Source: Bacillota bacterium (GTDB lineage Bacteria; Bacillota; DTU025; JANLFS01). From it: a stretch of 58,762 bases of DNA. This document shows positions 57,331 through 58,095 of the stretch, piece after piece (positions within the stretch are counted from its first letter, which is position 1; each line of letters begins with the position of its first letter). The stretch lies in NCBI GenBank assembly GCA_024655925.1, contig JANLFS010000005.1, positions 1 to 58,762 on the forward strand, given 5' to 3'. A program made the position numbers and the translations under genes. A model generated the notes under the pieces. That model was not told the DNA's origin. It did no database searches and saw only the letters and a program-made list of their open reading frames with translations.

Positions 57331-57719
57331 TGCCACTTGCCGCCGAAGCACATGCACGGGCCGCGGCCCAGGCTGCGATCGACAAAAAGGCGGAGGACAC
57401 TGTGGCCCTGGACATCTCCGGGGTATCGCTCATGGCAGACTTCTTTGTCCTTTGCAGTGTTCGTACACAGGCACACGCAAGGGCGGTGAGGGAGGAGGTG
57501 ACCCGTGTCCTGGAAACCCAGGGGCTCACCCTCAAGCACCGGGAGGGCTCAGACGATTCCGGGTGGGTGCTGATGGATTGGGGTGACGTAGTGGTGCATA
57601 TCTTCGGTGAAACGGAGCGGCGCTACTACGATCTGGAGCGCCTGTGGGGGGACGCCCCTGTACTCGATCTGGAAGGAACATATCACGAAGCAGGTCAGGG
57701 GGTTGACGCGTCCGACTAG
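57330..57719 (+). CDS. rsfS: ribosome silencing factor RsfS
   Basis: AIDKKAEDTVALDISGVSLMADFFVLCS, W.LMDWGDVVVHIF, RRYYDLERLW. TAATG overlap with yqeK. Confidence 0.9.
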   Translation: MPLAAEAHARAAAQAAIDKKAEDTVALDISGVSLMADFFVLCSVRTQAHARAVREEVTRVLETQGLTLKHREGSDDSGWVLMDWGDVVVHIFGETERRYYDLERLWGDAPVLDLEGTYHEAGQGVDASD

Positions 57720-57731
57720 GGCCGGTATAAT
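57703..57731 (+). promoter_or_regulatory. sigma-A promoter of the T-box/tRNA leader
   Basis: TTGACG - 17 nt - TATAAT, overlapping the rsfS 3' end. Confidence 0.6.
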
Positions 57732-57932
57732 CAAAGCTGACTTGAAAATAGGAAACGGAAACGCTATGAAGAGGAGCAGTAGGGCCTGACGGGCTCCAAG
57801 AGAGCCGGAGGAGGGTGCGATCCGGCAGCCTCGAGGTTCCAAACTCGCCTCGGAGCGGCGCGGGTGAACTTCTCAGTAGCTCGCGACGGGACTCACCGTT
57901 ATACGGTTTCAAAGATGCGCCACGCATTTAGT

Positions 57933-58008
57933 GGGGCTGTAGCTCAGCTGGGAGAGCGCTTGAATGGCATTCAAGAGGTCGAGGGTTCGATCCCCTTCAG
58001 CTCCACCA
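57933..58008 (+). tRNA. tRNA-Ala (anticodon GGC), CCA encoded
   Basis: GGGGCUG-UA-GCUC-AGCUGGGA-GAGC-G-CUUGA-AUGGCAU-UCAAG-AGGUC-GAGGG-UUCGAUC-CCCUU-CAGCUCC-ACCA. It has the G3:U70 identity pair, A73, and canonical D and T loops. Confidence 0.9.
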
Positions 58009-58061
58009 TTCTCATGTATGGGTGGCGTGCGTACCAGGGTGGTACCGCGAACAGAGATTCG

Positions 58062-58091
58062 CCCCTGGCAGTTGATCTGCCAGGGGTTTTT
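58062..58091 (+). terminator. T-box expression-platform terminator
   Basis: CCCCTGGCAG-TTGAT-CTGCCAGGGG + TTTTT. Its 5' arm CCCCUGG is shared with the antiterminator helix (CCAGGG...CCCUGG). Confidence 0.85.
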
Positions 58092-58095
58092 CTGG

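Follow-up and report, generated by a model that had tools for sequence, protein, structure and literature searches.

In a stretch of 58,762 nucleotides from a Bacillota bacterium (contig JANLFS010000005.1 of assembly GCA_024655925.1, positions 1 to 58,762 of the forward strand; referred to here, at its full length, as the window), the segment from 57703 to 58095 holds a T-box leader of the leucine type in which a complete tRNA-Ala(GGC) gene lies between the two strands of Stem III. The reading that we favor, and consider reasonably probable, is that this is a composite unit consisting of one promoter, a transcriptional T-box riboswitch with a Leu (CUC) specifier, and a Stem III that is closed around a complete and functional tRNA-Ala(GGC) gene. 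An earlier note on this DNA, made from its letters alone, had recognized both the leader and the tRNA but had put the tRNA downstream of Stem III; the Rfam alignment, the predicted fold, and covariation in 60 related leaders place it inside Stem III. The nesting looks like an old, conserved, and apparently undescribed packing of a tRNA gene into a riboswitch.

The T-box model RF00230 matches the leader once, at 57757-58069, with a score of 109.4 bits against a gathering threshold of 93 (E = 2.7e-23; model positions 1-219; Rfam cmscan). The Stem I region and the antiterminator are joined in this one match across the tRNA, and the match contains a 101-nt insertion that the model places at the loop of Stem III. 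The leader is preceded by a sigma-70-type promoter, TTGACG-17-TATAAT (57703-57731; all features described here are on the forward strand), which has 11 of 12 matches in a consensus scan and is the sole promoter-like site in 57300-58400. In the cmscan alignment Stem I (57763-57856) shows the K-turn region, the AG bulge AGAGAG, the distal loop GGUGCGA, and a specifier loop, in which the codon CUC (Leu, 57844-57846) is followed by the purine G57847 within the context AAA-CUC-G (57841-57847). Stem II, with an S-turn-type loop, follows at 57859-57885, and the Stem IIA/B region at 57886-57902 contains the F-box CCGUUA (57896-57901). A string of purines read directly from the sequence, AGAUG (57913-57917), fits the RRRxG motif expected before Stem III, which has been defined as part of a 5'-RRRxG-Stem III-AA-3' discriminator (PMC7583486).

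Downstream of the tRNA, the alignment and direct reading agree on a T-box sequence, AGGGUGGUACCGCG (58036-58049), with 14 of 14 matches, and on a T-box bulge, UGGUACC (58040-58046), whose UGGU (58040-58043) complements a tRNA 3' ACCA, the A73 end being common to tRNA-Leu. The antiterminator (58035-58067) consists of the helices A1, CAGGG/CCCUG, and A2, GCGAA/UUCGC. The intrinsic terminator identified by a terminator scan (58061-58091) has an 11-pair stem (58061-58087) and a following run of T. The 3' strand of the antiterminator (58058-58067) overlaps the 5' strand of the terminator (58061-58071), and pairing in the two is mutually exclusive. A score above the RF00230 threshold, a specifier loop with its following purine, the AG bulge and distal platform, the T-box sequence, and the antiterminator/terminator overlap are found together in the window, and jointly these elements are far beyond chance. 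The single promoter, the leader elements, and the terminator that the earlier note had described were in this way all recovered.

The nested tRNA gene (57933-58008) is an intact 76-nt tRNA-Ala(GGC) with G3:U70, A73, and an encoded CCA, and it is accepted by two detectors, ARAGORN and the Rfam tRNA model RF00005 (64 bits, threshold 29, E = 1.3e-11); its acceptor stem reads GGGGCUG/CAGCUCC, followed by A73 and then CCA. Given the CUC specifier and the purine after it, the embedded tRNA is non-cognate, as had been proposed, and both the specifier and the identity of the tRNA are conserved across the family described below. From the CCA to GGGUGG there are 28 nt, rather than the approximately 22 nt that had been estimated for the sequence beyond the tRNA. 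The 5' strand of Stem III, CGCCAC (57918-57923), and its 3' strand, GUGGCG (58022-58027), stand on either side of the tRNA. When 57896-58036 is folded, the minimum free energy (MFE) and centroid structures agree on a helix, GCGCCAC (57917-57923) with GUGGCGU (58022-58028), that encloses the tRNA, and cmscan likewise pairs the sequence on either side of the 101-nt insertion as Stem III.

The same pairing is supported by comparison of relatives. For 60 related leaders, the 6 nt after RRRxG were compared with the 6 nt before the conserved AA, and 3' strands exchanged between loci served as the control (Wilcoxon test); this test, anchored on RRRxG and AA, was used in place of free duplex-energy and unanchored helix searches, which gave a high background. 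A leader's own flanks form 5.03 of 6 basal pairs, as against 3.75 of 6 with exchanged flanks (p = 3e-9, n = 60), and complete pairing at all six positions is seen in half of the leaders but in only 4.5% of the swaps. Compensatory pair types occur at every one of the six positions, and the flanks fold to a stem with a median of 10 bp once a tetraloop is substituted for the tRNA. The spacers between the end of Stem III and the ends of the tRNA are mostly 0-5 nt, and a purine string, GAGUG, GAGCG, or AAGAG, is found in the relatives at the same place as AGAUG in the window. The tRNA therefore takes the place of the apical loop of Stem III, and its flanks are the two Stem III strands. Stem III belongs to the discriminator domain, in which its termini and the flanking purines act, while the stem and loop are variable (PMC7583486, PMC11404447). 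The site of the tRNA is most likely the only structurally permissive spot of the sensing domain, and it is probably because the apex of Stem III is free to vary that a 76-nt tRNA can be accommodated without destroying the switch.

The arrangement is not confined to the window. A genome set was composed of loci encoding LeuS relatives, with one genome per GTDB species, and in it a tRNA-Ala(GGC) gene is found just upstream of leuS in L003, L004, L007, L017, L026, L040, L057, L070, L080, and L082. The RF00230 match spans the tRNA in four of these genomes, namely L004 and L007 (Peptococcaceae metagenome-assembled genomes), L057 (a Bacillota metagenome-assembled genome), and L080 (Ktedonosporobacter, Chloroflexota). 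Metagenomes were scanned with a pattern that is blind to tRNA identity, consisting of a generic tRNA T-arm, CCA, a gap of 5-35 nt, and GGGUGGNANCGCG. At least 120 loci were matched, and all counts for the family refer to the matches listed. The tRNA is tRNA-Ala(GGC) in 111 of 120 loci; in 4 the locus runs off its contig, and the other 5 matched by chance, having another tRNA or none and no T-box. Thus, in 111 of 116 interpretable loci there is one tRNA species at one site with one regulated gene. The N terminus of LeuS is encoded downstream in 93 of the 98 loci for which 400 nt or more of sequence is available, from which leuS would be the regulated gene of the window leader as well. A Stem I motif with an A-CUC-R specifier was found in 79 of 99 loci by a strict regular expression, and in about 54 of 56 when the aligned context was read by eye. 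The window agrees with the family in having its tRNA between the Stem III strands and 5-35 nt before GGGUGGNANCGCG, together with a CUC specifier.

Among the leaders listed, 62 are non-identical; clustering at 75% identity sorts them into 40 groups, and their GC content lies between 40 and 75%. Across them 42 different tRNA sequences occur, which differ by compensatory changes in the stems; G3:U70 and A73 are present in every one. In 50 of the 62 a near-consensus promoter precedes Stem I, at a distance of 155-277 nt from the tRNA, and just 4 have a promoter within 60 nt of the tRNA. When 20 of the metagenome loci were tested against RF00230, 8 passed the threshold as one match across the tRNA; the other 12 scored below it, presumably because of the penalty for the insertion. 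In a rough neighbor-joining tree of LeuS, nested leaders are spread over several clades of Bacillota and one that is Chloroflexota-like, and loci with a plain T-box or with none are interspersed among them. This distribution fits an old origin with repeated losses, and transfer may also lie behind its scattered character. The comparison indicates that the nesting represents a large, conserved family; no description of it was found in the literature consulted, so that the earlier note's impression of something unreported held, but the window is not the singular case that it had appeared to be.

In the composite unit, transcription from the single promoter would first produce Stem I and Stem II, which would capture the anticodon and elbow of tRNA-Leu(GAG). 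The polymerase would next pass through Stem III, making its 5' strand, then the tRNA-Ala, then its 3' strand, and would come last to the T-box bulge, where uncharged tRNA-Leu would stabilize the antiterminator. The choice between antiterminator and terminator would be made co-transcriptionally on the intact leader; processing before this decision is unlikely, because just ~30-80 nt separate the tRNA from the terminator. A promoter scan found no internal tRNA promoter between Stem I and the tRNA in the window, and neither a second promoter nor a terminator isolating the tRNA from the riboswitch parts, which the earlier note had named as a check, was found there. Because the terminator is downstream of the tRNA, terminated and read-through leaders would both carry pre-tRNA-Ala, and RNase P and 3' maturation would release tRNA-Ala from either type of transcript. 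For a tRNA with an encoded CCA the participation of RNase Z is doubtful, and, as in Bacillus tRNA maturation, an endonucleolytic cut with exonucleolytic trimming is likelier. The predicted outcome is that tRNA-Ala(GGC) is produced constitutively while leuS remains under the control of tRNA-Leu charging, and that the read-through mRNA starts at a processed end beside the antiterminator/terminator hairpin, which recalls the processed met leader of Staphylococcus aureus (PMC7913692) and the thrS leader discussed below.

Two further roles for the nested tRNA were considered and set aside. A dual specifier, suggested by the GCC that follows CUC and that the nested GGC anticodon would read, was rejected; a purine followed by CC is a generic T-box context, and about 15 of 56 listed relatives carry GUC, ACC, or GGC at this place. 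Binding of the ACCA of the nested tRNA in cis to the UGGU bulge also appears unlikely; its 3' end would not be free before processing, and the discriminator sterically excludes anything past the 3' terminal A (PMC7583486).

It should be noted that a join at the nested tRNA does appear to exist in another assembly. Over 6443 nt contig L001 and the window differ at a single position; L001 then departs from the window exactly after the CCA of the tRNA. Beyond the tRNA, L001 continues with a T-box 3' half from which GGGUGGU is missing, and then with a hairpin and leuS (L001 6367-6560 against window 57933-58100). In this flank ACCGCGA and UCGCCCC are remnants of the T-box 3' half, and, as an oddity, it still holds GUGGCGC, which is complementary to a Stem III 5' strand of the window type. 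Positions 50 and 64 of the tRNA are a mismatched A50-A64 in L001, A50:U64 in the window, and U50:A64 in L003. The GC content at third codon positions (GC3) is 0.84 in leuS of L001 and 0.81 in leuS of L003, as compared with 0.67-0.72 in the genes of the window. The LeuS of L001 is 74% identical to that of L003 and 60-62% identical to those of L004, L007, L017, and L057, whereas Obg, NadD, the RRM protein, and RsfS of the window are no closer to L003 than to L004, L007, L017, and L057. The window lineage and an L003-like lineage thus appear to have been fused in L001 at the tRNA common to both, through assembly or recombination, and L001 was rejected as a guide to the gene downstream of the window leader on account of the hybrid T stem, the GC3 gap, and the incongruent protein identities. 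The switch at the 3' end of the tRNA means that a join at this tRNA is present in at least one of the two assemblies, and the nesting in the window could on that ground be suspected of being an artefact of the assembly, produced by joining two loci with a tRNA-Ala gene in common, so that the T-box halves would be of separate origin. We regard this as highly improbable. The inconsistent contig, as judged by A50-A64, GC3, and protein identities, is L001 and not the window; the flanks in the window pair across the tRNA and belong to one complete T-box match; and the same architecture is found in 111 independent contigs listed and in four genomes.

Several observations weigh against the composite unit as a working switch. 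The 3' flank of Stem III in the window is UGCGUACCA (58028-58036 region), whereas 61 of the 62 leaders have AA-NNN, and the window is the only one among the 62 nested leaders without AA 3' of Stem III; its discriminator may for this reason be weakened or suboptimal. The window does not show the regulated gene, since a group II intron follows the terminator. The metagenome scan pattern demanded an intact T-box sequence, so that the family counts cover no degenerate forms. Finally, L003, L017, and L026 are without a T-box and yet retain the linkage of tRNA-Ala to leuS. The T-box in the window could be a decaying relic, the unit now being only a tRNA-Ala gene with a terminator and making no response to tRNA-Leu. 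Purines flanking Stem III have been reported to be necessary for tRNA binding (PMC9177973, PMC7583486), the intron is located right after the terminator, and decay is seen in near relatives, the 3' half in L001 lacking GGGUGGU and L003 lacking Stem I. On the other side, the T-box sequence with its 14 matches, the CUC in a canonical loop, the F-box, RRRxG, and the overlapping antiterminator and terminator strands are all intact, the score of 109 bits is above the Rfam threshold, one A is still present at the expected place in UACCA, and introns that target terminators leave the leader itself undisrupted. Decay to a relic is accordingly judged improbable, although less so than an artefact of assembly.

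A different departure from the composite unit as described would be for the nested tRNA to be an active part of the switch rather than a passenger. The approximately 100 extra nt could delay the decision on termination after Stem I has captured its ligand; Stem III, which would close only after the tRNA has been transcribed and folded, could tune the time available to Stem I for tRNA-Leu; or cleavage by RNase P and at the 3' end could split the leader and so set the 5' end and stability of the leuS mRNA, by which the supply of tRNA-Ala and the processing machinery would be coupled to LeuRS synthesis. The exclusive association in 111 of 116 interpretable listed loci, the persistence of nesting despite the depth of LeuS divergence, with several clades of Bacillota and one Chloroflexota-like clade represented, and the shortness of the spacers between Stem III and the tRNA, mostly 0-5 nt, are in keeping with such a role, and RNase cleavage of a T-box leader alters mRNA stability elsewhere, in the met leader of Staphylococcus aureus (PMC7913692). 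An exclusive association is predicted equally well by one ancient insertion and subsequent inheritance, many leuS T-boxes have no tRNA (L005, L006, L009, L010, L019, and L030), and other lineages keep tRNA-Ala and leuS without a T-box. An active role is thus a tentative possibility that we think rather unlikely, and tRNA-Ala carried by a leader that still answers to tRNA-Leu is the interpretation that we prefer. Were the tRNA an active part, the expression platform of a riboswitch would be coupled to tRNA maturation, and this coupling would predate the divergence of major Bacillota and Chloroflexota lineages and have persisted ever since.

The nearest known system is the canonical T-box leader of leuS and other aminoacyl-tRNA synthetase genes (RF00230, Bacillus type). 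The nested leader has the same Stem I, Stem II, Stem IIA/B with F-box, and Stem III with its 5' purine string, the same 14-nt T-box sequence with a UGGN bulge, a competing antiterminator and terminator, the Leu codon CUC, and the rsfS-leuS neighborhood. It differs in that the canonical leader has no whole 76-nt tRNA of another amino acid identity in the apex of Stem III; the nested form is ~100 nt longer and holds substrates for RNase P and for 3' processing, and the window leader is without AA after Stem III. T-box leaders with extra structured RNA in or next to the discriminator show the same tolerance, and cleavage of the met leader by RNase III influences what becomes of the mRNA (PMC7913692), but the RNA added there is a simple hairpin or linker that yields no gene product of its own and is found in one genus, whereas the insert here is an autonomous, conserved tRNA gene that occurs across phyla. 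T-box regulation and tRNA-Ala are each well known, and what appears to be undescribed is their combination, the exact place of the tRNA, and how widely the arrangement is distributed: full-text searches and the T-box reviews, TBDB paper, and comparative surveys consulted, a coverage that lacks some key papers, gave no mention of a tRNA gene within a T-box leader.

Genes for tRNAs are co-transcribed with protein genes elsewhere, as in thrU-tyrU-glyT-thrT-tufB of Escherichia coli and in the tRNA punctuation of mitochondrial transcripts. In both of these the tRNA is likewise excised from a transcript that bears an mRNA and shares its promoter, but it stands beside the mRNA, whereas here it is inside a folded regulatory RNA domain, the halves of which must cooperate. 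The thrS T-box leader of Bacillus subtilis, according to Condon et al. in 1996, is reportedly processed upstream of the terminator, and the endonucleolytic cut likewise leaves a read-through mRNA with a structured 5' end; that cut is not due to an embedded tRNA, and a second gene product is not released.

T-boxes rank with the most thoroughly studied riboswitches, their structures and kinetics having been worked out on compact leaders, and the present family offers a natural version that carries an unrelated tRNA gene in the domain that senses aminoacylation. If it functions as proposed, a large structured insert can be accommodated by the discriminator at the apex of Stem III, a property that would be useful for the engineering of T-box/tRNA modules, and attenuated leader transcripts that would otherwise be wasted could yield a useful product. 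The arrangement would also account for the conserved linkage of tRNA-Ala(GGC) with leuS across phyla, and it raises testable questions about the order of co-transcriptional folding and about tRNA-processing enzymes acting on a riboswitch. For annotation, pipelines will probably overlook such leaders or divide them, considering that 12 of the 20 tested are below the Rfam threshold.

The upstream neighbor of the leader is rsfS (57330-57719), the last gene of an obg-nadD-RRM-yqeK-rsfS block, as identified from open reading frames (ORFs) and from the Pfam labels on the identical genes of L001. The interval between nadD and yqeK contains a small gene for an RRM-type RNA-binding protein (56339-56596; PF00076 on L001), which is kept in L003, L004, L007, L017, and L057. 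Farther upstream, 50214-54344 may represent a peptide-modification neighborhood. It includes an ORF with a LuxR-type helix-turn-helix (50214-50705), an ORF (51033-52370) with a radical-SAM-like CxxxCxxC motif and a cysteine-rich C terminus, an Rce1/CPBP-like membrane protease within 52070-53068 (PF02517 on L001), and a SpoB_a/HATPase histidine kinase (53442-54344).

On the other side of the leader is the 5' part of the group II intron (58096-58762), with domains I-IV and the start of a reverse transcriptase (RT) ORF; its 5' boundary, drawn from Rfam matches, is approximate. The matches are to RF02001 at 58179-58351 (145.6 bits) and RF01998 at 58392-58477 (66 bits), and the RT-like ORF begins at 58654 with MELIIEPANAKAALKRVERNRGAAGPDGM and runs past the end of the window. 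Some 9 nt separate the terminator stem from the start of the intron, and the window stops inside the intron, so that domains V and VI and most of the RT are beyond the end. Class C (group IIC) introns insert after intrinsic terminators (PMC4424553), and the site of the intron fits this habit. As with group IIC introns it is a few nt past a strong intrinsic terminator hairpin, but the terminator used in the window is the regulated terminator of a riboswitch, and read-through transcripts would need to be spliced before leuS could be expressed. No LeuS coding sequence was found anywhere in the window; leuS is not visible because the intron follows the terminator and the window ends in it. The gene that the earlier note expected downstream is thus not seen in the window itself, and the expectation is borne out among the relatives.

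Several variants of the arrangement occur. In a Chloroflexota-type form (L084, L092, L104, L157, and L080) an additional tRNA-Ala(CGC) gene is located ahead of Stem I, ~220-390 nt upstream of the nested tRNA, so that the 5' half of the T-box sits between two tRNAs; in L082 (1736-1885) both tRNAs are upstream of a separate T-box sequence. In L003 (5740-6000), L017 (5800-6000), and L026 (5650-6000) promoter, tRNA-Ala, terminator, and leuS are adjacent and there is no Stem I; because these have lost the T-box, its control seems to be dispensable in some lineages, and the linkage of the tRNA with leuS appears to outlive the riboswitch. L040 and L070 similarly have tRNA-Ala(GGC) directly before leuS, with a promoter beside the tRNA, a terminator behind it, and the T-box Stem I absent. 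L099, L123, and L094 have a promoter-like site 21-124 nt before the tRNA, no recognizable Stem I, and an intact T-box sequence, and may be intermediates of T-box loss. In 16 listed loci, 0.4-2.2 kb separate the leader from leuS. In L113 (1403-2308) a class IV aminotransferase gene (PF01063, ilvE-like) stands between the nested leader and leuS, and the Leu T-box probably controls an ilvE-leuS operon. Matches to the cyclic di-GMP-I (c-di-GMP-I) riboswitch are present 0.2-2 kb upstream of leuS leaders in two unrelated loci (L030, 3702-3776; L093, 188-274), a co-occurrence that is probably coincidental.

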